Shown in pieces: positions 11,325-32,151 of a stretch of DNA of 64,000 bases. The position numbers and the translations under genes are program-made. The notes beneath the pieces are model-generated. The model was not told where the DNA came from. It did no database searches and worked only from the letters and a program-made list of their open reading frames with translations. Every line of letters starts with the position of its first letter. Position 1 is the first letter of the stretch. Origin of the DNA: Candidatus Hydrogenedentota bacterium (GTDB lineage Bacteria > Hydrogenedentota > Hydrogenedentia > Hydrogenedentales > JAEUWI01); the NCBI GenBank assembly GCA_034669905.1, contig JAXMOL010000005.1, positions 96,001-160,000 of the forward strand. Direction: 5' to 3'.

Positions 11325-12755
11325 ATGTCTTTCTGGCACCGCTGCATGCGTTTTGTACCATGCACTTCCCTGGTTCTGGCCGCCTCCGTGGCCTTGTCCC
11401 CGGCCCACGCCGACTGGCCCACCTACCGCCACGACATCGCCCGTTCCGGCATTGCGTCGGACCCCCTGGGCACGTCGCTGGAGCCCGCCTGGGTCTATCG
11501 CGCAGCCCACGCGCCCCAGCCCGCCTGGCCGGGTCCCGCCCGTCGCGACGGGTGGCACAAATCGGACCCCCTCAAGGCCCGCATGATTTTCGACTGGGCT
11601 TTCCACGTCGTCATGGACGAAGAGCACTTCTATTTCGGCTCCTCCGCGGATGACAAGGTCTACGCCATTGATCTGGCCACGGGCGAAGAAGCCTGGACCT
11701 TTTTCACGGGCGGACCGGTTCGCCTGGCCCCCACGGTGCACGACGGCAAGGTCTACGCCGGTTCCGATGACGGCAAGGTCTATTGCCTCGACGCCACAGG
11801 CGGCGAAGAGATCTGGCGTCATCAGGTCGCCCCCGACAGCTATCTTCTCCCTGGAAATGCCCGGGTAATCTCAATTTCTCCTGTACGAACCGGGGTCCTG
11901 GTGGATAACGGCATGGCCTATTTCGGCAGTGGCGTATTTACCTTTGAAGGGGCCTACCTCTGCGCCGCCGATGCCAACACGGGCAAGCCCATCTGGAAAA
12001 AGAAAATCAACAACACGGCCCAGGGCTACATGCTCGCGTCTCCCGAGAGTTTGTATGTGGCCCGGGCGCGATTGAACCCCCTCGTGCTCACGCGAGATGC
12101 CGGTGACGTGGAATACAGCCACTCCGGTGGTGGCGGCAGCTTTTCGGTCCTGGTAGACGACTACCTCTTTTACGGCCCCGGCCGCACCGGCCAGATCGAA
12201 GCCGCCCGCTCCGACAAGGGCCGGCACCTGGTCACCTTCCAGGGCAACGTACTCGTTGTGGATGGTCCCCTGGCCTACATGCAATCGGATACGGAACTGC
12301 AGAGCCTCGACCGGGGCCGCTATCTCGCCCTGGCCGAAGAGCGCAAGCTCATCGACATGAAGAAAGACATGGCCAAGCAAAAGCTCAAGGCCCTGAAGAA
12401 AGAAGAAGAACAGACCGACGAACTCAAGGCGGAGATGGATGAACTCGTGGCCAAGATGGAAGGCTACGACAAGGAAATGGCCCCCTATGCAGAGAAAATG
12501 GAAGCCTGCATGCGGTGGAAAGTACCGAGCGCCTATCCCTATTCGCTGATTCTTGCGGGTGAACGGCTCTACGCCGGTGGCCTCAATGAGGTCGCGGCCA
12601 TTAATCCCGACAACGGCGAAGTCAGTTGGAAGGCACCGGTAGAAGGCCGCGCCCTCGAACTCGCCAGCGCCAACGGCTATTTGCTCGTAAGCACGGATCA
12701 GGGCGTCATCCACGCCTTCAAAGAAACTACGCCCCAGATTGCGAAGAAGCAATGA
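11325..12755 (+). CDS. Secreted PQQ-like beta-propeller protein with a coiled-coil insert
   Basis: Signal peptide, DWPTYRHDIARSG, repeated YAIDLATGEEAW-type blades. Confidence 0.85.
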   Translation: MSFWHRCMRFVPCTSLVLAASVALSPAHADWPTYRHDIARSGIASDPLGTSLEPAWVYRAAHAPQPAWPGPARRDGWHKSDPLKARMIFDWAFHVVMDEEHFYFGSSADDKVYAIDLATGEEAWTFFTGGPVRLAPTVHDGKVYAGSDDGKVYCLDATGGEEIWRHQVAPDSYLLPGNARVISISPVRTGVLVDNGMAYFGSGVFTFEGAYLCAADANTGKPIWKKKINNTAQGYMLASPESLYVARARLNPLVLTRDAGDVEYSHSGGGGSFSVLVDDYLFYGPGRTGQIEAARSDKGRHLVTFQGNVLVVDGPLAYMQSDTELQSLDRGRYLALAEERKLIDMKKDMAKQKLKALKKEEEQTDELKAEMDELVAKMEGYDKEMAPYAEKMEACMRWKVPSAYPYSLILAGERLYAGGLNEVAAINPDNGEVSWKAPVEGRALELASANGYLLVSTDQGVIHAFKETTPQIAKKQ

Positions 12756-15589
12756 AGCACCTGCCCAGCCCCATGCGCGGAGTATCTCTCATGAACCATT
12801 CCCTTAGCGTACTTTCCCTCCTGTTGGTGGCCTTTTCCGCTGTGGCCGATGACAGCCTCATCGCCCATTGGCGTTTTGACGAGGCCGCCCTGCAAGACAA
12901 TCAGTTTGCCGAAACGGTCCATGGCGCCCACGTCGCCCTCGAAGGCCCCACCGCCTTTGGCGGCACAGGCGACGACGTTGCGGCCCTGGTTTCCCTCAAC
13001 GACACCAAACTCACGGTGCCCGCCGAAACGTCCACCACGGCCCTCCCCACCGAAGCCATGACCGTGGCGGTCTGGCTCTCCATCGAGCGTACGGTGGAAT
13101 GGGCCGACATACTCGGAGCGGCCCAGCGCAATGGGGGCCTGCAGAAAGGCTGGAGCCTCGGCTTCCGGCAATCCAATTTCAGCTTTGGCCTGAGTACCGC
13201 CGGGGCCGATGATGGCGATGGCAACATGACCTATGCCCGCTCCCTCCACTCCCTCGAATGGGGTAAGTGGTATCACGTGGTCGGCACCTACGACGGCGCA
13301 ACCCAGCGACTCTATGTCAACGGCGAACTCGTGGCCGAAGAAAGCGCACAGAGCGGCGCGATTCTATATCCCGAAGACCCTTCCCTCGTTTTTGCAGGCG
13401 GCAGTGACGGCGGCTGGCGTGGCTGGCTCTATGAAGGGGCCATCTACAACCGGGCGCTCAGCGCCGACGAAGTGACCGCGGCTTACGCTGCTAAACAGGG
13501 GCACTTCCCCACGGCCCTTCATGTAAAGGTCGGCCCCTATCTCCAGCGCATGGATAAGGATCGGGTGCGCATCGCCTGGGAAACGGAGACACCCAGCGCG
13601 TCGACCTTGCTCTGGGGCGACGCCCTTCCCTTGTCTGCTACCCAGACCAGCGACGAAAAGCGCAAGCAACATACCGTCATCGTCGATGGCCTGCAACCTG
13701 AGACCATATACTGGTATCGTGTCGCCTTCGAAGACGAATCCGGTAAAACCCAATACACGCGGGTCCACGAATTCGACTCCACCTTTGACTACACACCGGT
13801 GCGTGTCACGGCCAAGCCCTTCCCCTACGAAAATGCGGCGGAGCAGGAACGCTTTTCCGCGTTGGCCGAACAGATTCTGAATGAAACTGGCATCACCCAG
13901 GGCTATGCCCTGGTGGTCGGTTCTGGCAAAGGTCGTCTGGCCTACGAATTGGCCTGGCAATCAGACCTCCAAATCATCTGCGTCGATGACGACCCCAAGC
14001 AGGTACAGGCCGTTCGTCGCGCACTGGATAAAACCGGTGTCTATGGCGTAAAAGTCAGCGTGGTGGAAGCCGATCTCAATGACCTGCCCATGACCCAATA
14101 CTTCGCCAACCTCGTCGTTTCCGAAAGTCTCCTGGACGGCGACATGCCGGGCAGCATCGACGAACTCAATCGGGTGACCCGTCCCGATGGCGGGAAACTC
14201 TGGCTCCAGTGGGATCCGTCCCACGAGGACGCCGTTCAGGAATGGCTCGGCACGGCACCCAATGAATGGACCCTTGCCGATAACCGGGCGACCTTCACCC
14301 GGCCCATGGTGCCCGGCGCCGGCAAATGGACCCATCAGTATGGCCAGGGCAACAACGCGGCCAACAGCGACGATGCCGTCATCGGCGGTGCCATGGCCGC
14401 CCTGTGGTATGGCGAGCCCGGCCCCCGCCCCATGGTGGACCGGGGCACCCGCTCTCCCGCCCCCCTCAGCACGCGGGCACGCCTCTACGTGCAGGGTGAC
14501 CGACGCCTCTTCGGGATTGATGCCTTTAATGGCACCATCTACTGGGACCTCGAAATCCCCAACCTGCGCCGGGCCAATGTCCCGCGGGATGGCAGCAACA
14601 TGGTCGCCAATGAGCACACGCTCTACGCGACGGTACGGGACCGGTGCTGGGTGCTGGATGGCCAGACGGGTGCGCTGAAAGCCGCATTCGAATTGCCCGA
14701 AGGCTATCGGGAAGATTATGACTGGGGCTATCTCGCCTCGGAAGGTGAAGTCCTCTATGGCTCCGCCGTACGGCGCGGTGGACTCTTCGTAGGGGCCGAT
14801 GGCGAATGGTATGACGACCCCGGCAATGAGTCCCAGAAGGTCATCAGCGACGTGCTCTTCGCCATGGACCGCCACTCGGGCGAATTGCTCTGGACCCGGG
14901 AAGGCGGCGCGGTTGTGAACTCGACGATTACCCTCGGCGGGAACCGTCTCTTCTTCATGGAAAGCCGGAGTGATGCCGTGAAGGCCCTCGAAGCCGGACG
15001 CGCCGGGGACGAGATTTCCAAGGACCGCTTCCTGGTGTCGATGGATGCCCAGAATGGTAGTGCCCTCTGGGATCGACCCTACGGCGAAGACAAAGCCACC
15101 TTTGTCATGTACCTGATGCACACCGATGAGCGGCTTATCGCGGTGGACTCGTCGGACCGTTGGGAACTCTCTGCGTTTGGTATCTCCGACGGTGAACTGC
15201 TCTGGGAACAGAGCTACGAATGGCTGAGGGACCACCATGGCGGCGCTATGACCCACCCCGCCATCATTGGCGACATGATAGTCGCAGAGCCCAAGATTGT
15301 GAGCCTGAGTTCCGGGGAAGTCCTGCGCGACGTGCCGGATCGCAATCATGGCTGTGGTACGTTGGCCGCCTCGCGGGACACCATTCTCTGGCGCGACGGC
15401 AACCACGGCATGTGGAACGTGGAGACCGACGAGCGCACCGTGTGGAATGATTTCCGTCCCGGTTGCTGGTTGGGCCTTATCAGCGCCAACGGACTCTTGC
15501 TCGCCCCCGAAACGAGTGCGGGCTGCTGGTGCGCCAGTCAACCCCTACAGACTTCCGTCGCCTTTGCGAAAGCCGACGCGGCGCGGTGA
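12752..15589 (+). CDS. Secreted multidomain protein: LamG, FN3/purple-acid-phosphatase N-like, class I methyltransferase-like and PQQ-like propeller
   Basis: LIAHWRFDE and WYHVVGTYDG (LamG); GPYLQ..IAWET (FN3); VVGSGKGRLA (MT-like); WTHQYG; C-terminal GCG/RPGCW/GCWC. Alternative start at 12791. Confidence 0.8.
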   Translation: MKHLPSPMRGVSLMNHSLSVLSLLLVAFSAVADDSLIAHWRFDEAALQDNQFAETVHGAHVALEGPTAFGGTGDDVAALVSLNDTKLTVPAETSTTALPTEAMTVAVWLSIERTVEWADILGAAQRNGGLQKGWSLGFRQSNFSFGLSTAGADDGDGNMTYARSLHSLEWGKWYHVVGTYDGATQRLYVNGELVAEESAQSGAILYPEDPSLVFAGGSDGGWRGWLYEGAIYNRALSADEVTAAYAAKQGHFPTALHVKVGPYLQRMDKDRVRIAWETETPSASTLLWGDALPLSATQTSDEKRKQHTVIVDGLQPETIYWYRVAFEDESGKTQYTRVHEFDSTFDYTPVRVTAKPFPYENAAEQERFSALAEQILNETGITQGYALVVGSGKGRLAYELAWQSDLQIICVDDDPKQVQAVRRALDKTGVYGVKVSVVEADLNDLPMTQYFANLVVSESLLDGDMPGSIDELNRVTRPDGGKLWLQWDPSHEDAVQEWLGTAPNEWTLADNRATFTRPMVPGAGKWTHQYGQGNNAANSDDAVIGGAMAALWYGEPGPRPMVDRGTRSPAPLSTRARLYVQGDRRLFGIDAFNGTIYWDLEIPNLRRANVPRDGSNMVANEHTLYATVRDRCWVLDGQTGALKAAFELPEGYREDYDWGYLASEGEVLYGSAVRRGGLFVGADGEWYDDPGNESQKVISDVLFAMDRHSGELLWTREGGAVVNSTITLGGNRLFFMESRSDAVKALEAGRAGDEISKDRFLVSMDAQNGSALWDRPYGEDKATFVMYLMHTDERLIAVDSSDRWELSAFGISDGELLWEQSYEWLRDHHGGAMTHPAIIGDMIVAEPKIVSLSSGEVLRDVPDRNHGCGTLAASRDTILWRDGNHGMWNVETDERTVWNDFRPGCWLGLISANGLLLAPETSAGCWCASQPLQTSVAFAKADAAR

Positions 15590-15773: not shown

Positions 15774-17060
15774 ATGACCAAACTGACTTTCAAAACCCGC
15801 GCTCTGAGCCTCGTCATCCTCCTGGCCATCGCCTTACCTGCCATGGCGTGCCGTTACTCGGTGCGTGAAGTGGGCTTTGTCGACCTGGACGAGGCCCCCT
15901 ATCAGTTCTATCTCTATCCCGGTGATGCCCCGACCGATGTGGTGGCCCGGGTCAAGCGGGCGGCCTACACGGCCTTCATCGATGCCCATATACTCATCCA
16001 CGAGGTGGGACCCGACAAGCAACCCGAAGTAGACTATGTGAAACGCCATCATCTGGAGCACTTTCCGGCGGGTGTGCTGGTGGCACCCGAAGGCCAGTCC
16101 CTGCCAGTAAACTTTCCCGAAGCCGCACTGGGCGACGATGACGCCCTCCTCGCCTTGCTCCATCCCCTCGTTCGCTCGCCCAAACGGGACGCGCTGCTTG
16201 AAAAGGTCATCGAGCCCTTCTGCACCCTCCTGCTGATTCACGGCGACGACGAAAAACTCAATGTCACGACGAAGGCGCGCATCGAAGCGGCCATCGTCGA
16301 ACTGACCGACAACATGGACCAGCTCGAAAAAGGCACCGAGGTCCCGCCCCAGTTGGTGGAACTGACCATCGCCGAGCGGGCCACGGAAGTCCCCCTCCTC
16401 TGGAGCCTCGGCCTTTCCCCCACGGCATTGGCCGAGCCACGGGTGGCCGTCCTCTTTGGCCGGGCACGCCGTATGGGCTCCATCTTGCGTGGTGACCGGG
16501 TGAGCCAGGAATCGCTCATGGAAGTCATGACCCTCATTGGTGCCTCCTGCGAATGTGGCCTCGACCGCAAATGGATGCAGGGCCCCATGCTCCCCCTCGA
16601 ATGGGACAGCACGGACCAGTCCGAACTGGCCGCCCACCTGGGCTTCGACCCGGAAAGCCCCCTCGTAAAAACCGAAATCAGCCAGATTATCGCCCAGGGC
16701 ATGGCCCAACAGGGCAGCGGCACCAAGATGGACTCCATCCTCGGTGTGGATGAAGCCGAAGGTCGCAGGGCGGCCGCTTCGGTGGAAATGGAAGATATTT
16801 TGGTGGCGGAGAATGTGCCCTTGGGCGACGGTGACACCATCGTGGAAGATGTGCCGTTGGACGGGTCGGAGACCCTTGTAGAAGACGTACCCTTAGTCGA
16901 CGCTACGCCCCCGGTGGACAAAAACGAAAACATGGACGTCCTCGAAGAAGAAAAACACTTTCCCGTACCCCGGCCTACAGTCCTCAAGATAATCGCTTTT
17001 GTTGTTATCGCCAACATTGGCGGTGCCTTTTACCTCTTCCGCAGGAAGTCTGGCCAATAG
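15774..17060 (+). CDS. Exported hypothetical protein with a C-terminal membrane anchor
   Basis: Signal peptide ending AMA-CRYSVR, SCECG motif, three acidic 12-aa repeats, C-terminal TM followed by RRK. Confidence 0.75.
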   Translation: MTKLTFKTRALSLVILLAIALPAMACRYSVREVGFVDLDEAPYQFYLYPGDAPTDVVARVKRAAYTAFIDAHILIHEVGPDKQPEVDYVKRHHLEHFPAGVLVAPEGQSLPVNFPEAALGDDDALLALLHPLVRSPKRDALLEKVIEPFCTLLLIHGDDEKLNVTTKARIEAAIVELTDNMDQLEKGTEVPPQLVELTIAERATEVPLLWSLGLSPTALAEPRVAVLFGRARRMGSILRGDRVSQESLMEVMTLIGASCECGLDRKWMQGPMLPLEWDSTDQSELAAHLGFDPESPLVKTEISQIIAQGMAQQGSGTKMDSILGVDEAEGRRAAASVEMEDILVAENVPLGDGDTIVEDVPLDGSETLVEDVPLVDATPPVDKNENMDVLEEEKHFPVPRPTVLKIIAFVVIANIGGAFYLFRRKSGQ

Positions 17061-17062: not shown

Positions 17063-18208
17063 ATGCATCTCCTCCGCCTCATCCTCAAAGAACTCGGCCA
17101 CCGCAAGTTCAACGCTTTCCTGGCCGCCGCCGCCGTGACGCTCACCGTCTTTCTCTTCGTGGGCTTCACGAGCATGGGTCGCGCTTCGGACCGGGAAACG
17201 ACGCGCCTCATGCGCGATCTGGGCTTTAACCTCCGCATCATCCCCGCCGCGACCGACGAAGCTGTTTTCTGGAAACAGGGCTACGCCACGGAGACCATGC
17301 CTGCCGACTACGTGAACAAGTTCATGAATCAAAAGGGCATCTCCTACCGCCACCTGCTGGCCACCCTGCAACGCACCCTGCCTGTCGGTGGCGTCGACGT
17401 TTTGCTCACGGGTATTGCGCCGGAAGTGTCGCCCCTGGAGACCGCGAAAAAGCCCATGGTCTTTGAAATCGAACCGGGCAACCTCTACCTCGGCTTTCAC
17501 GTGGCCCGCCACCTGAATAAGGCCAAGGGCGACACCCTGGAACTCGGTGGCGAGACCTTCACTGTGGCCACCGTGCTCTCCGAAAAAGGCAGTGAAGATG
17601 ACATCCGCATTCAGGGGCGCCTGGATGATGTGCAGCGCATCCTGAACATGGAAGGGCGCATCAACGAAATTCAGGCCCTGGAATGTCTCTGCCGTGACCC
17701 CAACGTGGACTCCCTCGACACCCTGCGGGCCGAGCTCACGAAAATCCTGCCGGACGCCAAGGTCATCATGCTGCGCGATATCGCCAAGACCCGGGAACGG
17801 CAGCGCATCACCAACGAGAAGTACTTCGCCATTTCCATGCAGATTGTCTTGCTGGTCTGTGCCGTATGGCTCGCCGTGTTGGCCTTCCTCAACGTGCGGG
17901 AACGGAAAAGTGAAATCGGTGTCCTCCGCGCCCTCGGCTATGGCACGGGACAAATCGTCCTCCTCGTCCTTGGAAAAGGTCTGGCCATCGGCCTCCTTGG
18001 GGCGGCGCTGGGCTTTGCGGCCGCGACGGCTGTCGTGCTCACCTATGGCCCCGCCATTTTTGAAGTCACCGCGGGTAGCATCGCCATCGAATGGCCCCTG
18101 CTCGTTCAGGCCCTTATACTGGCCCCCTTATTGACCGCTTGTTGCAGTATGATCCCCGCCGTCTATGCGGCCACACAGGATCCCGCCGAAACCCTCCGGG
18201 AACTCTAA
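17063..18208 (+). CDS. ABC transporter permease, FtsX/MacB family
   Basis: NVRERKSEIGVLRALG, DPAETLRE; periplasmic ECLC. Confidence 0.9.
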   Translation: MHLLRLILKELGHRKFNAFLAAAAVTLTVFLFVGFTSMGRASDRETTRLMRDLGFNLRIIPAATDEAVFWKQGYATETMPADYVNKFMNQKGISYRHLLATLQRTLPVGGVDVLLTGIAPEVSPLETAKKPMVFEIEPGNLYLGFHVARHLNKAKGDTLELGGETFTVATVLSEKGSEDDIRIQGRLDDVQRILNMEGRINEIQALECLCRDPNVDSLDTLRAELTKILPDAKVIMLRDIAKTRERQRITNEKYFAISMQIVLLVCAVWLAVLAFLNVRERKSEIGVLRALGYGTGQIVLLVLGKGLAIGLLGAALGFAAATAVVLTYGPAIFEVTAGSIAIEWPLLVQALILAPLLTACCSMIPAVYAATQDPAETLREL

Positions 18209-18214: not shown

Positions 18215-18871
18215 ATGTTGACCTTTGACAACGTATCCAAACATTACAAGACCGCCGACGGCACGGTGAAAGCCCTCGACGCCTTCAGCCTGACCATTGA
18301 TTCCGGTGCCTTCGCCGTCATCAAGGGACCCAGCGGTTGTGGCAAGTCTACGCTGCTCCTCCAGGCCGGTGGCATGCTCCGCCCCACGGAAGGGACTGTC
18401 TCCGTCAATGGACAGGACCTCTATGCCCTGAATAACCGGGCGCGCGGCGACTTCCGTCGGGAACATATCGGCTTCGTCTTCCAGATGTTCCACCTCCTGC
18501 CCTATCTTACCGTCCGGGAGAATGCCCTGCTCTCTGCCCCCACGAAGAGCACCGAGGTGGATGCCCTGCTGGAGCGCCTGGGCCTGTCTGAACGGCAGCA
18601 CCATCTCCCGAGTGCGCTGAGCGCTGGAGAAAAGCAGCGTACGGCCATCGCACGGGCCCTCCTTCCCGAGCCCGCCCTGGTGTTGGCCGATGAGCCCACG
18701 GGCAACCTGGACCCTGAAAACGCCGCCCTGGTTATGCAATACTTGGCCGACTATCAACAGGCTGGCGGCACGGTCGTGTTGGTAACCCACGGCACGGATG
18801 GCGATCAATTTGCCACCCGTTCCATCAACTTGCGGGGTGGCACCCTTGAAACCGATCGGCATGCGCCGTGA
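18215..18871 (+). CDS. ABC ATP-binding protein (LolD/MacB-like)
   Basis: [30 protein letters not shown]. Confidence 0.92.
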
Positions 18872-19938: not shown

Positions 19939-19954
19939 ACAAGATAACGTTGAA

Positions 19955-19991
19955 CGCTGGCCGTGTGTTTCTCCGAGACACGCGGCCAGCG
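19955..19991 (+). terminator. Strong 3' hairpin (terminator or RNA stabiliser)
   Basis: 17-bp stem CGCTGGCCGTGTGTTTC/GAGACACGCGGCCAGCG with two G-U pairs; no clear U tail. Confidence 0.45.
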
Positions 19992-20056
19992 CTACGAAGA
20001 CTCGACGATAACAGGTTACTCTTGAAGTGGCTATCTTCACAGGGGCACATGACACG

Positions 20057-20434: not shown

Positions 20435-20446
20435 ACACTTCTTAGT

Positions 20447-20645
20447 GACCACGGATAAGTCGGATAAAACGGATAAATAAGGCAGAGACAGAAGTCCTGC
20501 GAGCGACCACACGTTAAAGGCCGAAGGCAACCGGTTTACATTTATCAATTTCCCGACAGGAAACCGGAAAGCTCGTAATGCACGTTGGCATCAACGAAAT
20601 TTTCTACCGTACCATACATCCGTTTTATCCGTGTCATCCGTGGTC
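20447..20645. repeat. ~200-bp element bounded by 28-bp inverted repeats built from 9-mers
   Basis: GACCACGGATAAGTCGGATAAAACGGAT against the reverse complement of 20618-20645 gives 25/28 identity. Confidence 0.8.
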
Positions 20646-20722
20646 AAATTACTACGACATAGCATATACTTCAGACTTACTGGCCATACGACAAATTCAA
20701 CCTGGAACCGAATTCAGAACAC

Positions 20723-23196: not shown

Positions 23197-24687
23197 ATGA
23201 AGAACGCATTACGACCCTTAGTGATCTCAGGCATCCTGATCCTCGTCCTGTTGGGATTCCTGCTGGACCGAAAAACTGACACGGGTATCACGGACACCCT
23301 CGTCATGTATTGCGCGGCAGGTATCAAAGCGCCGGTAGAAGAAATCGCCAAAGCCTATGAGGCGGAATATGGTGTACAGATCCAACTGGAATACGGCGGC
23401 TCGGGCACCCTGCTGAGTCGTCTGCAGGTAGCCAGCGAAGGCGACCTTTACCTGGCCGCCGACTCATCCTACATCGGGATCGCCCGAGAGAAAGACCTCG
23501 TGGCCGAAGCCCTTTCCGCCGCGCGCATCACCCCCACCCTCGCCGTACAGAAGGGAAACCCCAGGCAGCTGACTTCCATCGAGTCCCTGCTGCAGGCGGG
23601 CATTCGCGTGGGCCTTGCCAATCCCGATGCGGCTTCGGTCGGGAAGGCGACTAAGAAAATGCTGAGCGCCTCGGGCGAATGGTCCGCACTCGAAGCCCGG
23701 GTACAGACGGATGGCGTGTTCAAACCCACCGTGAACGATGTGGCCAACGACGTGAAACTTGGTGCGGTAGATGCCGGTATCGTGTGGGACTCCACCGTTC
23801 GTCAGTATCCGGAGTTGGAAGCCGTTGCCCTGCCCCAGGCCGAAGATTTCGTCAAAGAAGTCACGGTGGGTATTCTTAAGTCTTCCCACAATCCCACGGC
23901 CGCCCTGCGCTTCGCGCGCTATCTGACGGCGACGGATATGGGACTGCCCATCTTTGCAAAACATGGCTTCGAAATCGTGGACGGTGATGTGTGGGCCGCA
24001 GAGCCGGAAGTGGTCTATTTCGCCGGCGGTGTGAACCGCGTGGCCATTGAGAAAACCCTGGCCGCCTTTGAGCAGCGCGAAGGTATCCGTATCAATACAG
24101 TCTACAACGGCTGCGGCATCTTGCTCGGCTCCATCAAGGGCGGCGAACGGCCGGACGTGTACCACACCTGCGACGCATCCTTTATGAATGGCGTTGAGGA
24201 ACTCTTCGGTGCCGCCGACCCCGTTTCGAAAACCGACATCATGCTGCTGACCCAACCCGGCAACCCCCATGGCCTGCAACGCCTCGAAGACCTCGTCAAG
24301 CCCGGCATCGAGGTGGGGCTCTGTAACGAGGACCAAAGCACCCTGGGCTATATGACGGGAGCCATGCTTCGGGAAAAAGGAATCTATGACGCGGTTCAGA
24401 AAAACGTCATCGTCAACACGCCGACAGCCGATCTCCTGGTGGCCCAAGTAACCGTGGGCAAGCTGGATGCCGCCGTCGTCTATCGGGCCAACACCCTGGC
24501 CGTGGGCGACAAGGCCGAAGTCTTGCGCCTCCCCGATGACAATGCCAACGCGACCCAGACCTATGCCGTGGCCCAGCAGACGAAATATCCCCACCTGCTG
24601 GAACGCCTGCACGAAGCCATTCGTTCTGCCAATTCCAAGGCCCAGTTTGAGTCCAGTGGTTTCGAGTATCTGGAGAAAAAGCTGTAG
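23197..24687 (+). CDS. modA: Molybdate/tungstate ABC substrate-binding protein with two tandem ModA-like domains
   Basis: YCAAG, YGGSGTL, DLYLAAD, VQKGNP, DAGIVW; a second similar domain follows. Confidence 0.75.
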   Translation: MKNALRPLVISGILILVLLGFLLDRKTDTGITDTLVMYCAAGIKAPVEEIAKAYEAEYGVQIQLEYGGSGTLLSRLQVASEGDLYLAADSSYIGIAREKDLVAEALSAARITPTLAVQKGNPRQLTSIESLLQAGIRVGLANPDAASVGKATKKMLSASGEWSALEARVQTDGVFKPTVNDVANDVKLGAVDAGIVWDSTVRQYPELEAVALPQAEDFVKEVTVGILKSSHNPTAALRFARYLTATDMGLPIFAKHGFEIVDGDVWAAEPEVVYFAGGVNRVAIEKTLAAFEQREGIRINTVYNGCGILLGSIKGGERPDVYHTCDASFMNGVEELFGAADPVSKTDIMLLTQPGNPHGLQRLEDLVKPGIEVGLCNEDQSTLGYMTGAMLREKGIYDAVQKNVIVNTPTADLLVAQVTVGKLDAAVVYRANTLAVGDKAEVLRLPDDNANATQTYAVAQQTKYPHLLERLHEAIRSANSKAQFESSGFEYLEKKL

Positions 24688-24689: not shown

Positions 24690-25608
24690 CGGGGACTGCA
24701 CCGACGACATCCGCCGCGTCCGATGCGATGTACGTGGGGGCCAGCCAAATATCTCGCCTTACTCACATTCGCCCGCACGTCGGGGCTGTCCCCCTCTCCA
24801 AGATAGGCGGTAGGCATCCCTTCGTCGACGTACCAGACCATAGGTCACTTGGTGAAAAAACTTTCTCGCCTGCGGCGTCGCCGCAGGAGCGGCAAGATAG
24901 GCATTCCTGCGGCGGACCGTAGGAACGAGCGGTATTAAGAAGGGACGGCCGCACCACAGCGGGGACTGCACCGACGACATCCGCCCCGTCCAACGAAGAT
25001 CACGCGGGGGCTAGCCGGTATTCTCGCAGTACAATCCGTTAACCCGGACGTCGGGGCTGTCCCCCTCTTCGAAAACGACGGTGGGTGTCCCGTCGTGGAC
25101 TTATCAGACCACAGGTCTCTTGGGAAACTTTCTCGCCTGCGGCGTTGCCGCAGGAGCGGCAAGATAGGCATTCCTACGGCGGACCGTAGGAACGAGCGGT
25201 ATTAAGAAGGGACGGCCGCGCCACAGCGGGGACTGCACCGACGACATCCACCCCGTCCAACGAAGAGCACGCGGGGGCTAGCCGGTATTCTCGCAGTACA
25301 ATCCGTTAACCCGGACGTCGGGGCTGTCCCCCTCTTCGAAAACGACGGTGGGTGTCTCGTCGTCGACGTACCAGACCATAGGTCACTTGGTGAAAAAACT
25401 TCTCGCCTGCGGCGTCGCCGCAGGAGCGGCAAGATAGGCATTCCTGCGGCGGACCGTAGGAACGAGCGGTATTAAGAAGGGACGGCCGCGCCACAGCGGG
25501 GACTGCACCGACGACATCCACCCCGTCCAACGAAGCGTACGCGGGGGCTAGCCGGTATTCTCGCAGTACAATCCGTTAACCCGGACGTCGGGGCTGTCCC
25601 CCTCTCCA
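24690..25608. repeat. Tandem array of ~270-bp composite palindromic units (about 3.4 copies; BIME-like)
   Basis: Units start at 24690, 24960, 25227 and 25497; each begins GGGGACTGCACCGACG...CGTCGGGGCTGTCCCC, and further hairpins follow in the three full units. Confidence 0.92.
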
Positions 25609-25642
25609 AACTGCCGCAAAATCTATCCGGGCGAGGTAGTCC

Positions 25643-27763
25643 CTACATGTCCCCGCTTCCCGGTCGATAGGTGCGCAACAATTGCCCTTCGATCTCCGCT
25701 TCCGTAAAGGCGACGGGCTTCATGGTGTGATTCGCAAAGAGGGGCGTCTGGTCGTTGTAGTGCGGCGAATCGGGCCGACCGCTTTGGCTGTAGGCCAACA
25801 CCGAGTAGGCCTTCGGCGTCTCCCCGAACTCGACGACAAACACATAACCATCACCCCCGTTCATTACATAGCGGCCGTCTTCCCCTTCGGTAAAATCACA
25901 GACGCGGAAGCAACCGAGATCGCCATCGCCGCCGCCGACGGGCAGGTCCACGTCACCCCTCCGTATCCGGTGCACGTCCCCCCAGGCCACGTCCCACGAA
26001 CCCCACCGCGCAGTACACTCGGCCATGGCCTCCCGAAAGGCCGGCAAGACCCGCTCAGGAGCCCCAATACCCAGGGGCGTCGACATGGGCGTTTTCTCAT
26101 CCCAATCTTCGGCGAATCGATGGTCCCCCTTGCGGTAGATAGACCACCACACCTTGAAGAGCACACTGCCCTTGCTCTCGGCCCGGACAGAATTCTCCCA
26201 CCGCTTTAAGAGTTCCCGTGCGGCGCGCTCCTCGTCGTTCAAGTCGGCCTCGCCAAGGATTTCCAGCAGGTCGGGCTTCACCCGGTCTGCCAGCAGCATA
26301 TTCATACTGAACTTCGCCTCCATCAGCGACTCCAGATCAAATTTTGTATCATTGTGAATCAGCCCCAGGCCGTGCTGGGTGCGCAGACTGAGGGCATTGT
26401 CGGGAAAGTGCGCGGGATAGTCTTCCCGCTTCAGCGGAAGATGGAGATTGGTCAAGTAGGGCGGCGAGTTACAGTTTTGCACGTAGCCGCCGGCGGGATT
26501 GATGAATTGCATTAACTCTTCCACCGGGTGAATCCGGGTCCACACCTCATCGGTCGTCCCCACCGGCATCGCCTCATTGCCATGGGCCGGGTGGGGCAAG
26601 TCGGGCACCGTGCCATTCCAGAGATACATGATGTTCCCCGCCCGGTCCGCATAGGACACATTAAACATGGGAATCTCCTGCATGGCAAGCACGGCGCGAA
26701 ATTCTTCCAGATCTTGTGCTTTGGTCATGCGGTACCACTGGACGCCCGTCTGGTATTGCTCATAGCCCACCGAACGCAGGATGAAAGCACTCGAGTCATT
26801 TCGGTGAATCACGGGGCCAAGGGGACTCCACCAGAACTCCCGCTGGAGCGGCGTGTCGCCTTCGGTGAGAATGGTGACCACCTCATGCTCCAAGGGGATA
26901 GAACCGCCATCGAATAGATAGTGGTCCGGCTGCGCGGGGTCGAGGGCCACTTCGTAAAGCTCATACAGGTCGGGGTGGTTCACCGTGTGGGACCAGCCAA
27001 GATTATCGTTGAATCCCGTGCTGAGAATGGGACCGCCGGCGAAGGTCGAACCATAGAAATTATAGACACCGGGAACGGTGATGTGGGCCTCATAGTAGTT
27101 GGCCTCTTCCGACCAGGGCTGGTGAGGATTATTCAACAGGAGGGCGTGGCCATTTTTCGTGCGCCACGGTGCGAGGGCAATGGTATTCGACCCCATCGGC
27201 GCTTCCGACAACATTTCCAAGGCAGCCCGGGTGCTCTCCCCCTTCTCCACGGCACGCTTGAGTCGTCCAATGACGTTCCCTCGAAGGAAGGTAAAACGCA
27301 TGACCGCCACCTGCCACGCGCAGCCTACATCGTGGGGCGTGACCGGTGTCATCCAGTCCTCCCGCTCCTGCGGATGGGCCGCCATGTAGGCATTAATTCC
27401 CGCCGCAAACCCCGTCAGGACGCTCCGGTAATCTGCGGGCAAGCGGTGAAAATTATCCACCACCCGTTTCCGCGCACGGAGCTGCCGGGTCTGAAAATCG
27501 TATTCCACGTTACCCTCGCTTGCGCCATACCAGCGACTGACCTCACTCCGTCCCCGCACCACCGATTTATAAACGATAGGAAAATGATCCTCACATTGGG
27601 CCCAGGCGAATCCATAGGCCGCGGCTTTTTCGTTGTCCGCGAGGATGTGGGGCACCCCGTAATCTGTGCGGCGAATGGTGACCTGGTCGGCAAGGGCCGC
27701 AGGGGATTCCGCTATAACGGGGAGGGCAACAAGACTCAGGAGTAAACAAATGAATGGACGCAT
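25643..27763 (-). CDS. Penicillin acylase family Ntn-hydrolase (AHL/cephalosporin acylase-like)
   Basis: Signal peptide, DYGVPHI, GSN nucleophile site, NPHQPW, WSHTVN, YSQS. Confidence 0.88.
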   Translation of the reverse strand: MRPFICLLLSLVALPVIAESPAALADQVTIRRTDYGVPHILADNEKAAAYGFAWAQCEDHFPIVYKSVVRGRSEVSRWYGASEGNVEYDFQTRQLRARKRVVDNFHRLPADYRSVLTGFAAGINAYMAAHPQEREDWMTPVTPHDVGCAWQVAVMRFTFLRGNVIGRLKRAVEKGESTRAALEMLSEAPMGSNTIALAPWRTKNGHALLLNNPHQPWSEEANYYEAHITVPGVYNFYGSTFAGGPILSTGFNDNLGWSHTVNHPDLYELYEVALDPAQPDHYLFDGGSIPLEHEVVTILTEGDTPLQREFWWSPLGPVIHRNDSSAFILRSVGYEQYQTGVQWYRMTKAQDLEEFRAVLAMQEIPMFNVSYADRAGNIMYLWNGTVPDLPHPAHGNEAMPVGTTDEVWTRIHPVEELMQFINPAGGYVQNCNSPPYLTNLHLPLKREDYPAHFPDNALSLRTQHGLGLIHNDTKFDLESLMEAKFSMNMLLADRVKPDLLEILGEADLNDEERAARELLKRWENSVRAESKGSVLFKVWWSIYRKGDHRFAEDWDEKTPMSTPLGIGAPERVLPAFREAMAECTARWGSWDVAWGDVHRIRRGDVDLPVGGGDGDLGCFRVCDFTEGEDGRYVMNGGDGYVFVVEFGETPKAYSVLAYSQSGRPDSPHYNDQTPLFANHTMKPVAFTEAEIEGQLLRTYRPGSGDM

Positions 27764-27925
27764 GGGATGAAAACTTTCCTTCTCTAAGTGACGGTCTTCA
27801 CACACCAGGCGAGACGTCGGGCAGCGACGGACGCGCCATGGCGTGTTTCAGAGATAGTATAGGGTCTCACCCGTGCCATTTCGAGTCGCGCCCCGGCCCA
27901 CCGTCCGCCCCTCTTGCCACGTCGG

Positions 27926-28711
27926 TCAGAATGCGGTCAATCCGTCTAACACAGAAGGCAGGATCGGGAAAGTACCCAGGGGAACGAATTCCACGTGACC
28001 ATCCTGAAAGAGCACATGGCTTCCGTAGAAATCCTTCCGGCCCGACCGGTTTCTCCAGGTGGCTATTTCGATGAGCACGGGTACCGAACTTGGTGCCACA
28101 GAGGGATAATCCACATAGTTCAGGTCCTCCGTCCGAACAATGAACGTGCATCCCGGACGATTGCGCGTCGCAAAGAAAAGAGGCCCGTCGGTAGATCTGG
28201 TGCCACCAATGGCATCGGCGAGGGTCCCACCTCGTCTTGAATCCACGAGGGCCAGCAGTTCTGCTTCATTCGTGACCACAAAATTGATGTAGGCGAAACT
28301 CTCCGCCATGACCTTCGCGGCAAAGTCATAGTCGCGTAATGGCTCGGTCAGGGCGGCGCGGGAGAGGTCCATTAAATTCTCGGCCTCGGGGTGCTCCCGT
28401 CCCACGAGCAGCGCCGGGCTCGGTAGATACTCGGGATGTATCGACGCCAAATCGGGCACCCAACGACCGGGAAGATTCGCCAGGGGCGGTAGCTTCTCAC
28501 CCGCTGATTCGTTGGAATACATGGCGAAAACCAGCCCCCACTGCTTCATCCTGTTCGGGGTACTGACCCGATTGCTGTCAGATTCACGTTCCCGCAACGC
28601 CGACAGCAGTGGCGCGATGAGAAGCCCTGCAAACACCAGGAAGAGCAAAAGCTTCCAGACCTTCGGTTTTGCGGCATGTTGTTCTGTGTTGGAGTCCGGC
28701 AACGAATGCAT
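27926..28711 (-). CDS. Membrane-anchored DUF1559/H-X9-DG-CTERM-like protein
   Basis: N-terminal TM, NRMKQWGLVFAMYSNE, HVLFQDGHVEF. Confidence 0.75.
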   Translation of the reverse strand: MHSLPDSNTEQHAAKPKVWKLLLFLVFAGLLIAPLLSALRERESDSNRVSTPNRMKQWGLVFAMYSNESAGEKLPPLANLPGRWVPDLASIHPEYLPSPALLVGREHPEAENLMDLSRAALTEPLRDYDFAAKVMAESFAYINFVVTNEAELLALVDSRRGGTLADAIGGTRSTDGPLFFATRNRPGCTFIVRTEDLNYVDYPSVAPSSVPVLIEIATWRNRSGRKDFYGSHVLFQDGHVEFVPLGTFPILPSVLDGLTAF

Positions 28712-28754
28712 CGGTCATACCTCATCTTTTCAGGAAGACATCTCTATGCCCCTT

Positions 28755-28781
28755 ACTACGTAGGAAAACGGATGAGGTTCA
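28755..28781 (-). promoter_or_regulatory. ECF-type promoter
   Basis: TGAACC-N15-CGTAGT; same motif as 30390-30417. Confidence 0.6.
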
Positions 28782-28825
28782 TTTCGAGCTTGGGTGATTC
28801 CGTGCCGTGGAACCGGTGCCTGGGG

Positions 28826-29791
28826 TCAACCCGTCAGGCCACTTAATCCATCCAATACAGAACGGACGATAGGGAAGGTGCCGAATGGTACGAATTCCAC
28901 ATGGCCATCCATATAGAGCACATTGGCTCCTTCGAATTCTTCTGCAGACTTCTTGTGCTTCCACCCCGCAATCTCGATCAATACGGGAATGGTCGATTGG
29001 GCCTTGGCCGTACCCGCAGGATTATTGATATCGGTCAGGAGAAAGCGCTCAATTCCTTCCCGCAAGGGCAGCACCCCCTGGTATTCTTTGGCTTCCAGGC
29101 GACCGCCTTCCCGGGCCGCCTGAAGGGCCTCAAAGTCGGCGACATCACTCACCGTATAGCCCAGGTACGCATAGTTCTCCGCCATCAGCGAAGCGAGTGC
29201 CTCGCGGTCTCCCGCCTGGGAAGCCAGTTCGTTGGTCAGTTGATGGGAATCTGGGTGGGAAGGGGACAGAACCATATGCGGATCGCTCCAATATTCCTTC
29301 TCCAACGATGCCAGATCGGGCACCCACCCCTCCCGCTCCCGATCGAGGGAAGGATAGCGCTCGCCCTCGGACTCATTGGCGTACATTTTGAAGACAATCC
29401 CCCACTGCTTCATCTGATTTTGCGAGGTATTGCGTCGGGCCGCTTCCCGCGAGCGGTTCAACAGGGGAAGCACCACCACGGCAATCAAGCACGCAACCAC
29501 GAACGCGCCCCCGACCATCGCAAGAGGCCGACACTGCTGACCCCGGGCCGTCGCCTCGGTGGTCACGTGGGCAAAGGTTCGTTCCGCGAGGCCCGGGCGG
29601 GGCGACGCGACAGGCAGGGATTCAGACAGACCGCGAAGGTGGTCCCGCTGCACTTCCAGGGCGCTCCGACACGCCGGGCACCCTTCCAGGTGCTGGGCCA
29701 CCGCACGGGTCGCTTTTTCGGACAAGGTCTCCAGCGCATAGGCCTGGAGTTGGCCCCGGATCGTCTCACAGTGTGCCGTCGGCTCCATCAT
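28826..29791 (-). CDS. Anti-sigma factor: zf-HC2, TM helix and DUF1559/H-X9-DG domain
   Basis: HCE...HLEGCPAC, TM, SREAARR..NQMKQWGIVFKMYANE, NVLYMDGHVEF; ATGA overlap with the sigma gene. Confidence 0.82.
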   Translation of the reverse strand: MMEPTAHCETIRGQLQAYALETLSEKATRAVAQHLEGCPACRSALEVQRDHLRGLSESLPVASPRPGLAERTFAHVTTEATARGQQCRPLAMVGGAFVVACLIAVVVLPLLNRSREAARRNTSQNQMKQWGIVFKMYANESEGERYPSLDREREGWVPDLASLEKEYWSDPHMVLSPSHPDSHQLTNELASQAGDREALASLMAENYAYLGYTVSDVADFEALQAAREGGRLEAKEYQGVLPLREGIERFLLTDINNPAGTAKAQSTIPVLIEIAGWKHKKSAEEFEGANVLYMDGHVEFVPFGTFPIVRSVLDGLSGLTG

Positions 29792-30411
29792 TGCGACGCC
29801 TCCCAAACGTCCATCAATTGACGAACCGCCTTGTTCATCCGAGACTTCACCGTCCCGGTCGGAATACGCAGTGCGGTGGCAATTTCCGCATAGGACAGAC
29901 CCTCCTGGTGGGCCATGAGAAAAACCGCCCGATGCTTCACACTCAGAGTCGCCAGGGCCGCCTCCATGCGCGCCGCCAATTCCCCGGCAATGGCCGCTTC
30001 ATCGGGCTGGATGGCCGTCGCCGCTTCTTTGCTCAGGGGGTCGTATCCCAGTTCCTCGCCCCGACGCGCCAATGAAGATACCGGGATTTCCGGCCGCCTT
30101 TTTCGGTATCGGAGCCGATCCTTGCAGAGGTTGGTGGCGATACGATAGAGCCACGGGCGGAAGGGTGCCCCGGGCCGAAAGCGGGCACGGTGCTGGTAGA
30201 CGCGGAGAAAACTCTCCTGGAAGATTTCTTCGGCATCGGACGCATTGCCGAGCATTTTGCGCGCGTAATTGAACAAGGAAGCCTCATAGCGGTGAATCAG
30301 GACTGCGAGGGCGCGTTGGTCACCCGCGTTGACCTGGGCCATCAACTGCTCATCGGACCGGGCATCCGCAGCCCCGTCTGCTACTTCCCTATACGTTCTA
30401 TCACCTGTCAC
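29788..30411 (-). CDS. ECF RNA polymerase sigma factor
   Basis: DAEEIFQESF, FRPWLYRIATN, LSYAEIA..PTGTVKSR; the true start may lie downstream of 30411. Confidence 0.92.
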   Translation of the reverse strand: MTGDRTYREVADGAADARSDEQLMAQVNAGDQRALAVLIHRYEASLFNYARKMLGNASDAEEIFQESFLRVYQHRARFRPGAPFRPWLYRIATNLCKDRLRYRKRRPEIPVSSLARRGEELGYDPLSKEAATAIQPDEAAIAGELAARMEAALATLSVKHRAVFLMAHQEGLSYAEIATALRIPTGTVKSRMNKAVRQLMDVWEASQ

Positions 30412-30600: not shown

Positions 30601-31449
30601 ATGACGTCGACCGACTCCGAAGCCCCAGATCGTGCACCGCACAAGGTTCGCTCCGATACCCCCTTTTTCGTCGGATTGTTTCTTCTGAGTGGGGTCTACC
30701 TCTTTCTCATTGTGGCCATGATTCTGGCCAACTCGGCCTACACTTCGGTGGATATCTTCGCCCGCACCCTCGCCTCGCCAGAAATCCGCTATGCTATCAA
30801 GCTCAGCCTCATCACCTGCAGCGTAACCACCATTCTTTCGCTCTGGGTCGCCACCGCCCTGGGGTACTGCATGTCGCGCTTTGAATTCCGGGGGAAATCC
30901 CTGCTTGACTCCGTACTCGACATCCCCATCGTACTGCCTCCCCTGGTTATCGGGCTGAGTCTCCTCATCCTTTTTCGTTCAGGGCCGGGCATCTGGTTCG
31001 AGAATCTCTTTGTGGCCCTCACAGGCTACCGAATCACGTACGCCATCCCCGGGGTGATTCTGGCCCAGTTCATGGTCGCCTGCGCCTTTGCCGTGCGGAC
31101 CATGCGGGCTACCTTTGACGAGATTCCCGCCCGGTGTGAACACGTAGCCCTGACGCTCGGCTGCTCTCGGAGCCAGGCTTTCTGGTCCGTCTCCCTGCCC
31201 GAAGCACGTCGGGGACTCCTCGTCGCCGCCACCCTCGCCTGGGCACGCTCCCTCGGAGAATTTGGCCCCATCCTGATTTTTGCCGGGGCCACCCGGATGA
31301 AGACCGAAGTGATGCCCACCTCCGTTTTCCTGCAAATGAGTATCGGGGACATAGAATCCGCCGTGGCCGTCTCGATGTTGATGATTCTGGCCGCCATGGC
31401 CGTGTTGGTCGTCGTGCGACTTTGGGGAACAGAATCCTATGTCCGATAG
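30601..31449 (+). CDS. modB: Molybdate ABC transporter permease
   Basis: DIPIVLPPLVIG, LAWARSLGEFG. Confidence 0.82.
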   Translation: MTSTDSEAPDRAPHKVRSDTPFFVGLFLLSGVYLFLIVAMILANSAYTSVDIFARTLASPEIRYAIKLSLITCSVTTILSLWVATALGYCMSRFEFRGKSLLDSVLDIPIVLPPLVIGLSLLILFRSGPGIWFENLFVALTGYRITYAIPGVILAQFMVACAFAVRTMRATFDEIPARCEHVALTLGCSRSQAFWSVSLPEARRGLLVAATLAWARSLGEFGPILIFAGATRMKTEVMPTSVFLQMSIGDIESAVAVSMLMILAAMAVLVVVRLWGTESYVR

Positions 31450-31467: not shown

Positions 31468-32151
31468 ATGATAGCGCTCCAGGATGTATCGGTGCAGGCC
31501 GGCGCCTTCCGGCTCAACAGGATTTCCCTCCACATCCCGACCGGTGAATATGGCATCCTTATGGGGAAGACCGGCTGTGGGAAAACGACGCTGCTCGAGG
31601 CCATCTGTGGCCTGAAACGGGTGGTATCGGGCACCATCACGCTCGGTGACCGGGATGTCACCCGCCTGAAACCCGCCGAGCGGGGGATTGGGTTCGTGCC
31701 CCAGGACAAGGCCCTCTTCTCCACCATGACCGTCTATGAGCACCTGGCCTTCGCCCTGCGCATCCGCAACTGGGACGACCACGCCCTCGACACACGGGTC
31801 TGCGAGCTGGCGGAACTACTGGGTATCAGTGCCCTGCTGACCCGACGGCCCTACGGCCTCAGTGGCGGCGAGTCCCAACGTGTCGCCCTCGGGCGTGCAT
31901 TGTCGGCCCACCCCCACGTGCTCTGTCTCGATGAGCCGCTGAGTGCATTGGATGAAGACACTCGGCAGGAAATCTGTGATCTGTTGGCCACAATCCAAAC
32001 CCAATTAGGCGTTACCGTCCTCCATATCACCCACGATCCCCATGAGGCCACGCGGCTGGCCCAACATATTTTTCGACTGGAAGAGGGTGTCATCCGATCT
32101 TCCACCTTGGATTCAAGGGACACGACCGCCCCGCAACAGTTGCGGAATTAG
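31468..32151 (+). CDS. modC: Molybdate/tungstate ABC ATP-binding protein
   Basis: GKTGCGKTT, LSGGESQR, LDEPLSALD, HITH; no TOBE domain. Confidence 0.78.
   Translation: MIALQDVSVQAGAFRLNRISLHIPTGEYGILMGKTGCGKTTLLEAICGLKRVVSGTITLGDRDVTRLKPAERGIGFVPQDKALFSTMTVYEHLAFALRIRNWDDHALDTRVCELAELLGISALLTRRPYGLSGGESQRVALGRALSAHPHVLCLDEPLSALDEDTRQEICDLLATIQTQLGVTVLHITHDPHEATRLAQHIFRLEEGVIRSSTLDSRDTTAPQQLRN

Follow-up and report, generated by a model that had tools for sequence, protein, structure and literature searches.

A conserved gene module that groups a molybdate-type importer and a HesA-family protein with exported four-cysteine propellers

Why should a molybdate-type importer and a HesA-like protein be encoded close to exported proteins that carry cysteine motifs? 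The question is raised by positions 11325 to 32151 of a 64,000-nucleotide stretch of DNA (here called the window, meaning the whole stretch that was analysed) from a Candidatus Hydrogenedentota bacterium (assembly GCA_034669905.1; contig JAXMOL010000005.1, our C5, positions 96,001 to 160,000 of the forward strand), whose genome measures 7.44 Mb and is 95.7% complete. An earlier sequence-only reading had proposed that the span imports molybdenum or tungsten (Mo/W), builds a sulfur-containing cofactor and loads it onto periplasmic propeller proteins. Judged by gene content, order and conservation, nine genes of the span (propA, propB, the anchor gene, ftsX, an ATPase gene, hesA, modA, modB and modC) are the core of a real envelope module that is conserved in several bacterial phyla.

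The commonest full order, modA-modB-modC-hesA-anchor-ftsX-lolD-propA-propB, occurs in Verrucomicrobiota and in unclassified genomes. As an operon, in this order or in permutations of it and with an optional ubiquitin-like gene before hesA, the genes recur in Hydrogenedentota, Planctomycetota and Verrucomicrobiota as well as in unclassified genomes; in Poribacteria one locus holds a looser cluster of the same genes in which the propellers are not adjacent. The three mod genes are contiguous in genomes G011, G020 and G030, and modB directly follows modA in relatives. A search for type-A anchors in GTDB genomes returned 323 stretches. Among the best 80 of the 323, which include three loci from same-genus genomes and many short contigs, 57 loci encode an FtsX permease (56 with a CxC motif), 52 the ATPase and 56 a four-cysteine propeller; modA is present in 20, hesA in 19, modC in 18 and modB in 17. 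Type-B anchors, which are homologous to type A (hhalign, 99.2%), were sought in metagenomes, and the best 80 of 509 stretches include FtsX in 32, a propeller in 43 and mod or hesA in 8 (5 of the 29 loci longer than 12 kb). The type-A profile missed the type-B paralogue of the window genome, and anchor counts are therefore lower bounds. Fusions also join the core genes: locus L057 encodes an anchor-propeller fusion and L059 an anchor-FtsX fusion, and many loci have propA and propB joined in one gene.

The families co-occur across whole genomes as well, and the earlier reading's own ground for refutation, a failure to co-occur, is clearly contradicted. Among 41 relatives, hesA orthologues were found in 11, tandem ModA in 10 and the type-A anchor in 10, hesA and the anchor being shared in eight. 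An even sample of 201 Planctomycetota, in which the anchor counted was type B only, contained hesA in 21 genomes, the anchor in 28 and the propeller in 35 (six propeller candidates were scored per genome). Eighteen of these genomes have both hesA and a propeller, and hesA overlaps the type-B anchor in 17 against 2.9 expected; because the sampled genomes are kin rather than independent, such statistics overstate the association. All but one of the 21 hesA-bearing Planctomycetota carry a propeller or an anchor, the exception having its hesA in a nif cluster, and in 13 of the 21 an anchor, ftsX or lolD gene lies within about 10 kb of hesA. The ModA clade of the module was present in 22 of 25 module-positive genomes and in none of 19 module-negative ones, and also in G172, where the module was not found; with another query, 18 of 19 positives were propeller-positive. 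The proposed link between a molybdate-type importer and propellers thus gains support from co-occurrence, from the grouping of HesA with nif HesA described below, and from the lack of nitrogenase in 62 of 66 hesA genomes (4 of 66 scored above the PF00148 cut-off).

The features of the span are as follows.

11325..12755, plus strand: propA (core), exported pyrroloquinoline quinone (PQQ)-like beta-propeller without the four-cysteine motif (PF13360).
12773..15589, plus strand: propB (core, likely client), from Pfam, AlphaFold and conservation; start codon uncertain.
15774..17060, plus strand: anchor protein (core), in no Pfam or NCBIfam family; from a structure model.
17063..18208, plus strand: FtsX permease of MacB/FtsX type with four transmembrane (TM) segments (core); PF02687 and a weak MacB_PCD match.
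18215..18871, plus strand: LolD/FtsE-like ATP-binding cassette (ABC) ATPase that partners the permease (core); its scores miss the cut-offs for FtsE and LolD.
18943..21481, plus strand: 3-keto-disaccharide hydrolase, GxxExxY protein and GT2 glycosyltransferase (passengers), from Pfam and NCBIfam.
21514..22335, plus strand: ThiS-like-ThiF fusion (lineage neighbour, non-core); passes NF006395 and TIGR02354.
22410..23165, plus strand: HesA-family E1-like protein (core of the type I variant), from identity, tree and residue table.
23197..24687, plus strand: tandem two-domain ModA (core), TIGR01256, with an N-terminal hydrophobic segment.
24690..30411, no strand: intervening DNA outside the system, with a repeat array and minus-strand genes for an acylase, a pilin-like protein, an anti-sigma factor and an extracytoplasmic function (ECF) sigma factor.
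30601..31449, plus strand: ModB-type permease (core), from TIGR01581/TIGR02141 scores, BLAST and synteny.
31468..32151, plus strand: short ModC/WtpC-like ATPase without a C-terminal regulatory domain (core).

The plus-strand order is thus propA, propB, anchor, ftsX, LolD-like ATPase, hydrolase, GxxExxY, GT2, ThiS-like-ThiF, HesA-like E1 and tandem ModA. An array of ~270-bp repeats and four minus-strand genes (25643-30411) follow modA and part it from modB and modC, so the span is not co-oriented throughout, contrary to the earlier description of its genes.

What do the exported proteins have in common? Translation places every named cysteine motif where the sequence-only reading had put it, and the invariance of these motifs in homologues far exceeds what chance would give. 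In propB, which consists of a signal peptide, LamG, FN3-like and S-adenosylmethionine (SAM)-methyltransferase-like domains and an eight-bladed propeller, the cysteines are C861 (GCG, nucleotide 15353), C898 (RPGCW, 15464) and C918/C920 (GCWC, 15524/15530), spaced C861-x36-C898 (in RxxC)-x19-C918xC920. C861, C898 and C918 are kept in 46 of 46 homologues and C920 in 45, in an alignment whose rows were chosen by motif; a separate set chosen by identity has all four in 14 of 14. The pattern C-x(30-45)-RxxC-x(14-24)-CxC recurs in very diverged propeller paralogues. An AlphaFold model of propB 336-938 (predicted local distance difference test, pLDDT, 90.9; predicted template modelling score, pTM, 0.91) contains the methyltransferase-like domain and the eight-bladed propeller. 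Its closest folds, at 10-14% identity, are TetH (best by Foldseek, E 1.8e-17), BamB, Rv3035 (VIA Z 31.1, root-mean-square deviation (rmsd) 2.8, 336 aligned) and YxaL. By DSSP assignment and conservation, the four cysteines and Arg557, Arg600 and Arg895 are predicted to lie in D-A or B-C loops, that is, on one face of the propeller. Predicting the propB propeller in complex with both the anchor domain and a 4Fe-4S ligand scored 0.00, gave no answer and was not used as evidence.

propA aligns to the N-terminal part of fused two-propeller proteins of 1000-1500 residues, including the paralogue on host contig C74, and by this alignment is the separately encoded N-terminal half of such proteins, which are fused in many homologues. 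Neither protein reaches the cut-off of two named propeller families: propA scores 88.9 against a cut-off of 285 for BamB (TIGR03300) and 51.4 against 480 for PQQ-dependent alcohol dehydrogenase (TIGR03075), propB has no hit to either, and no lipobox was seen in the sequences. No Tat motif was found. In the ESM Atlas the propeller falls in clusters named PQQ_2 or BamB, and the anchor in unnamed clusters only. Propeller homologues carry additional malectin, LamG or FN3-like domains, and their paralogues are diverged and number six or more per genome; the anchor and FtsX occur in only one or two copies. The host itself encodes a second module of propeller, type-B anchor and FtsX (C74:4105-10379, L028) with neither the ATPase nor mod genes beside it, and a third four-cysteine propeller, with a malectin domain, on contig C33 (32490-35435, L029). 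In another genome moaC and a formate-dehydrogenase-like operon adjoin a four-cysteine propeller gene (L281, G106:C74).

The anchor has C26 at its signal site (AxA|C) and C259/C261 in SCECG, all three kept in 81 of 81 homologues. Its model shows two thioredoxin-fold domains, neither with a CxxC, followed by an acidic linker predicted to be disordered and by a membrane helix at the C-terminus. Domain 2 superposes on a thioredoxin fold with Z 8.5 and rmsd 2.5 over 102 aligned residues; the thioredoxin CxxC site is missing, and the invariant C26, C259 and C261 lie outside or at the edge of the aligned ranges, 40-135 and 137-259. We ruled out a lipoprotein, the lipobox being present in 0 of 46 and 2 of 51 homologues, and because the AxA|C site is not a lipobox the mature anchor is predicted to have a free N-terminal Cys26. 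With that cysteine and a CxC on a flexible tether, the modelled protein would be built like a carrier. More diverged relatives of the anchor gene (44-56 bits to type A) beside FtsX/ATPase or propeller genes in Hydrogenedentota (L306:8059-9297, L307:8829-9902, L309:8155-9753) suggest further subfamilies. A type-B anchor gene also lies about 20 kb from a nif cluster (L289, G268:C36).

In the FtsX permease, C208/C210 (ECLC) lie in a periplasmic loop, and the CxC is kept in 56 of 56 homologues. Four hydrophobic segments, a periplasmic domain and a separate ATPase place the pair with type VII (MacB/FtsX) transporters. According to PMC5985334, MacB-type proteins do periplasmic-side work and do not move their substrate across the inner membrane. 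Being MacB-type, the pair probably works in the periplasm and does not export, and the proposal of an ABC exporter of a cofactor therefore found no support.

How is this envelope apparatus connected to molybdate? ModA passes its family model (TIGR01256, 106.7 > 62.5) and has two binding domains whose cysteines, C39 (YCAAG), C306 (NGCG) and C325 (TCD), are kept in 121 of 121 homologues. Domain 1 is of molybdate type, with the Ser39 position kept and Gly at the Ser12 position. In domain 2, C306 occupies the Ser39 anion-binding position, C325 that of Ala58, which we take to line the pocket, and Gly again that of Ser12. The mapping covers Ser12 and Ser39 only, out of the ModA anion residues Ser12, Ser39, Ala125, Val152 and Tyr170, among which Ser39 is an anion contact (PMC8895017). 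The YCAAG cysteine is shared by a one-domain ModA of domain-1 type that is linked to nif genes, and is hence not specific to the module. ModB misses both permease cut-offs (TIGR01581, 202 against 210; TIGR02141, 159 against 183) and ModC its equivalog cut-off (TIGR02142, 158 < 285). By BLAST, ModB is the only such permease in the host genome, and the Mod set is the only one found there. Genomes of the module that lack HesA often have a split ModA pair (CGS/THDP pocket; CGAG) with a long ModC (L055:6039-7677, L261-L266), possibly with tungstate as the ligand. In L055 and L264 the pair lies beside the module; other HesA-free genomes have an orphan ModA-like gene inside the module. This second, HesA-free Mod type or orphan ModA-like genes occur in the module in L055, L264, L057, L092, L291 and L302. 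Many of the HesA-free loci presumably come from anaerobe groups.

HesA of the window had been read as a plain adenylyltransferase, which the residues do not support. Its best plasmid matches are cyanobacterial HesA proteins in nif and mod regions (48% identity; MoeB, 33-37%). In a quick tree, with Shimodaira-Hasegawa-like approximate likelihood ratio test (SH-aLRT) support and unsure inner placement, 68 rows that include two cyanobacterial and one planctomycete nif HesA form a clade apart from MoeB/ThiF (SH-aLRT 100). The MoeB-invariant residues R14, G38, D64, N70, K86 and D130, whose catalytic roles we take to be those usually assigned, are W, R, G, D, R and P in 65 of 65 HesA; no cysteine stands at the MoeB active-site position, and the zinc-type CxxC pairs are kept. 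Gene 22410 accordingly lacks the canonical E1 set (GxGxxG, Arg14, Lys86, Asp130, active-site Cys) and passes neither the MoeB nor the ThiF cut-off of NCBIfam, and because the canonical residues are replaced, ordinary E1 adenylation cannot be assumed. G64, D70, R86 and A129 are present in 65 of 65 module and 3 of 3 nif HesA; MoeB has D, N and K at 64, 70 and 86 (19 of 19) and T at 129 (18 of 19). W14, R38, H62, P130 and W183 are fixed in module HesA and absent from the two cyanobacterial nif HesA. A private gene for a ubiquitin-like protein of about 92 residues ending in Gly-Gly adjoins hesA in 7 of 10 relatives and in 13 of 21 Planctomycetota, and a half-size TauE-like protein follows hesA in five loci (Pfam-confirmed in one). 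In a Paenibacillus hesA mutant nitrogenase is all but abolished, a defect that molybdate or cystine partly rescues, and nitrate reductase is not affected (PMC6361004).

A natural deletion shows which parts travel together. The closed, one-contig genome G008, of the same genus, is syntenic with the window on both sides and lacks both the propA-to-lolD block and hesA; it keeps a one-domain ModA, modBC and thiF. G013 has a one-domain ModA and modB, and neither hesA nor a type-A anchor was found in it. Because the ModA proteins of these two genomes and of the nif-linked locus are one-domain and of domain-1 type, domain 1 is likely a general molybdate binder, and domain 2 and HesA likely go with the module.

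The same genome bears on the neighbouring genes. The ThiS-like-ThiF fusion at 21514 (NF006395, 284.5 > 159; TIGR02354, 242.4 > 152) is likely the host's thiamine ThiF: it is kept in module-less G008 and present in only 2 of the 80 type-A loci, and its inclusion in the system was not upheld. A loose link keeps some plausibility because such a fusion adjoins mod or hesA genes in two genomes outside the Hydrogenedentota, both Planctomycetota (L279:6227-7135, L162:3756-4640). GT2 (2 of 80 loci), the hydrolase (3 of 80) and GxxExxY (not at the same place in G004 and G005) were rejected as members. A Pfam scan of 61 open reading frames of the window turned up no molybdopterin, nif or other thi gene, in line with the earlier reading; this does not extend to the genome, which encodes moaC, moeA, a moaE-moeB fusion, moaD and thiG off the window. 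A Moco (molybdenum cofactor) operon of normal type lies on contig C10, thiG on contig C3 and thiS also on an off-window contig, and six Moco-family proteins are encoded in all. By gene content, then, the host makes ordinary molybdopterin; the nitrogenase family PF00148 had no match in its genome.

Beside modA, at 24690-25610, lie 3.5 tandem copies of a ~270-bp palindromic unit without an Rfam match, whose 50-70-bp core gives 24 BLAST hits on 14 contigs of the host; the array is probably an element resembling repetitive extragenic palindromes (REP) or miniature inverted-repeat transposable elements (MITE). On the minus strand at 27926-30411 follow an ECF sigma gene, a zf-HC2 anti-sigma gene fused to a DUF1559 pilin-like domain and a similar pilin-like gene, a set that sits between modA and modB in this genus. 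Further upstream, 438-4686 encodes three short paralogues of F5/8-type-C (galactose-binding-like) type together with an ECF sigma factor fused to the same domain; these genes adjoin one for an Agl23-like glycosyltransferase and are kept in G008. A Rfam search of the window at gathering thresholds gave 0 hits, and its promoter and terminator scans stood at shuffle level (7 against 6.2; 21 against 19.6). For positions 11300-21000 no RNA holder was listed.

What might such a module do? We start from a gene set with conserved sequence and order, from the folds of its products and from a close relative in which the module, HesA and ModA domain 2 are missing together. On this footing we propose, with a little less than even confidence, that the module may work in the periplasm to load four-cysteine propeller enzymes with a Mo/W-sulfur site that contains no pterin. 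ModA domain 1 and ModBC would import molybdate or tungstate and would also serve ordinary Moco. Conditioning of the metal with sulfur would fall to HesA, in most relatives together with its private Gly-Gly ubiquitin-like protein and sometimes with a membrane protein of TauE type, a step modelled on nif HesA and the iron-molybdenum cofactor FeMo-co. In the periplasm a modified or thiol-bound species would be kept by ModA domain 2, whose anion pocket has two cysteines, and the MacB-type FtsX/ATPase pair would perform ATP-driven mechanical work on that side. The CxC loop of FtsX would hand the species to the tethered three-cysteine anchor, which would load the top face of the propeller with its four cysteines and several invariant arginines. 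The enzymes of this scheme would be the propellers, which often number several per genome and carry malectin or LamG domains; their substrates would probably be glycans or other compounds of the periplasm.

Several findings weigh against this loading scheme. The periplasmic cysteines are even in number and able to form disulfides, the scheme leaves the route of a cytoplasmic product to the periplasm unexplained, and its HesA step has to do without canonical E1 residues. The private ubiquitin-like partner was not found in the host genome (best 30.7 bits, against 89-121) or in five others searched. A lack of Moco synthesis, which would favour a non-pterin cofactor, was not observed. MoaC, counted among hesA-bearing and module-bearing genomes only, is present in 55 of 66 hesA genomes and in 8 of 15 hesA-less genomes with Mod and module, which gives the importer an ordinary role and keeps a pterin cofactor in contention. 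Linkage is also incomplete: mod or hesA lies within 10 kb in 23 of 80 anchor-A and 8 of 80 anchor-B loci, hesA lies in 11 of 36 long anchor-A loci, and mod and hesA are both absent beside the second module on C74. About half of the module-bearing genomes have no hesA, among them 17 of 35 propeller-bearing Planctomycetota (14 of the 17 with the ModA clade). For 50 of the 61 type-A loci without hesA we checked the rest of the genome; hesA was elsewhere in 19 genomes and not found in 31, and the ModA clade was present in 11 of 30 of these hesA-less genomes and missing from 19, mostly fragmented metagenome-assembled genomes.

Could the traffic run the other way? Propeller, anchor and FtsX might capture a thiophilic or sulfur-substituted oxyanion (thiomolybdate, thiotungstate or bound Mo/W, for example) in the periplasm and hand it to ModA domain 2 for import, after which HesA and its partner would release it toward ordinary Moco or the tungsten cofactor (W-co). 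Such an inward flux would suit the cysteine-lined ModA pocket, the MoaC frequency in hesA genomes, the action of MacB-type proteins on the periplasmic side only (PMC5985334) and the position of the Mod set as the sole one found in a host that encodes six Moco-family proteins. However, the module-less genomes G008 and G013 have kept modB and a one-domain ModA, MoaC was not found in 7 of the 15 hesA-less Mod-and-module genomes, and many diverged propeller paralogues set against one or two copies of anchor and FtsX look like clients around one maturase; we regard inward flux as unlikely. Four cysteines also suit a [4Fe-4S] cluster, zinc or two disulfides, and the core might be a periplasmic thiol-redox or other-metal (Fe-S, Zn, Cu) relay to which Mod and HesA are linked as an accessory cassette with another purpose. 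The core does stand without adjacent mod or hesA in 57 of 80 type-A and 72 of 80 type-B loci, and the anchor has a thioredoxin fold, yet its cysteines are not at the thioredoxin CxxC site. Two Mod types and orphan ModA-like genes have been placed in the module repeatedly, the ModA clade is found in none of the 19 module-negative controls, and in G008 ModA domain 2 and hesA have gone together with the module, which leaves the relay an improbable account, if one to be reckoned with.

A new family of molybdopterin enzymes, to which the module would deliver Moco or W-co in the periplasm, would explain the high MoaC frequency, the resemblance of the E1 and ubiquitin-like proteins to MoeB/MoaD and the propeller gene of L281. 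Against this, the fetched module loci have no recurring moa, moe or mog neighbour, the host has its own moaD and moaE-moeB, and the Tat motif was not found, Moco enzymes being usually exported folded. Paenibacillus HesA is moreover dispensable for nitrate reductase (PMC6361004), and we consider pterin clients a long shot. Least probable of all, to a degree that makes it hardly credible, is a chance cluster in which the propellers are BamB-like scaffolds whose disulfides are structural, the ABC pair is generic and ThiF and ModABC are housekeeping genes. Chance does hold for ThiF, GT2, the hydrolase and GxxExxY, and the nearest propeller folds include BamB, but for the nine core genes it is contradicted by synteny across phyla, as well as by fusions, co-occurrence, invariant cysteines and the missed BamB cut-off.

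Mo and W are known in enzymes as pterin cofactors or in nitrogenase clusters. The conserved linkage of a molybdate-type importer and a nif-type HesA with exported four-cysteine propellers suggests a further Mo/W route. It is conceivable, although we think it doubtful, that the route ends in a third class of Mo/W cofactor, distinct from both molybdopterin and FeMo-co: a Mo/W-sulfur (perhaps Mo-Fe-S) cluster on the four-cysteine PQQ-like propeller that would be assembled in the periplasm by a type VII ABC system and fed by the HesA that also serves nitrogenase. If so, the module would define a large enzyme family in glycan-degrading bacteria of the Planctomycetota-Verrucomicrobiota-Chlamydiota (PVC) group and related lineages. 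Under the rival readings too, the module shows HesA in a context without nitrogenase and, in many genomes, with a ubiquitin-like partner of its own, and it brings out a propeller family of large proteins, clustered under BamB-like names, in 35 of 201 Planctomycetota.

Does any known system look like this one? By its genes it matches no described system; its chemistry we infer. A targeted literature search, with subscription journals mostly outside its reach and supplements not covered, found no published description of the module, and a term search within PMC1779556 returned no such operon from the text it reached. NosDFYL/NosZ comes closest in the way it works, by analogy and not homology. 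NosZ is a periplasmic beta-propeller enzyme with a metal-sulfur hub cluster, for which an ABC complex is strictly needed and a membrane-tethered cysteine protein acts as metal chaperone (PMC8457098); the module would likewise have a propeller client, an ABC machine and a tethered cysteine carrier. It differs in having cysteine rather than histidine as the putative ligands, an eight-bladed PQQ-like propeller, an ABC pair of MacB/FtsX type, molybdate-type uptake and an anchor of thioredoxin fold that is not a lipoprotein, and NosD, NosY, NosL and NosZ had no Pfam or NCBIfam hit among the genes of the region.

With the type VII ABC systems MacAB, LolCDE and FtsEX the module shares a four-TM FtsX permease with a periplasmic domain and a LolD-like ATPase, whereas the invariant periplasmic CxC and the dedicated thioredoxin-fold partner set it apart; no equivalog cut-off was passed, and neither MacA nor TolC was among the recurring neighbours. 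Tetrathionate hydrolase, BamB, quinoprotein dehydrogenases, Rv3035 and YxaL are PQQ-like eight-bladed propellers of the same fold (10-14% identity), but none of those entries is reported to have the four-Cys/Arg site, the methyltransferase-like domain or the lectin domains. The importer resembles ModABC in a ModA that passes TIGR01256 and keeps the Ser39 position in domain 1, and in homologous ModB and ModC; it departs from it in having two binding domains, Gly at the Ser12 position, Cys in place of Ser39 and Ala58 in domain 2, a ModB below both cut-offs (of which TIGR01581 is the one labelled 'NifC-like') and a short ModC. Lastly, HesA of the nif clusters of cyanobacteria, Paenibacillus and Frankia belongs to the same E1-like clade, sharing G64, D70, R86 and A129 and the loss of Asp130 and of the MoeB cysteine; modAB lies near hesA in both cyanobacterial records, and a planctomycete nif cluster has the same HesA with a domain-1-type ModA. 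The HesA of the module differs in often having a private Gly-Gly ubiquitin-like partner, in standing beside exported putative clients and in occurring, in 62 of 66 genomes, without nitrogenase.

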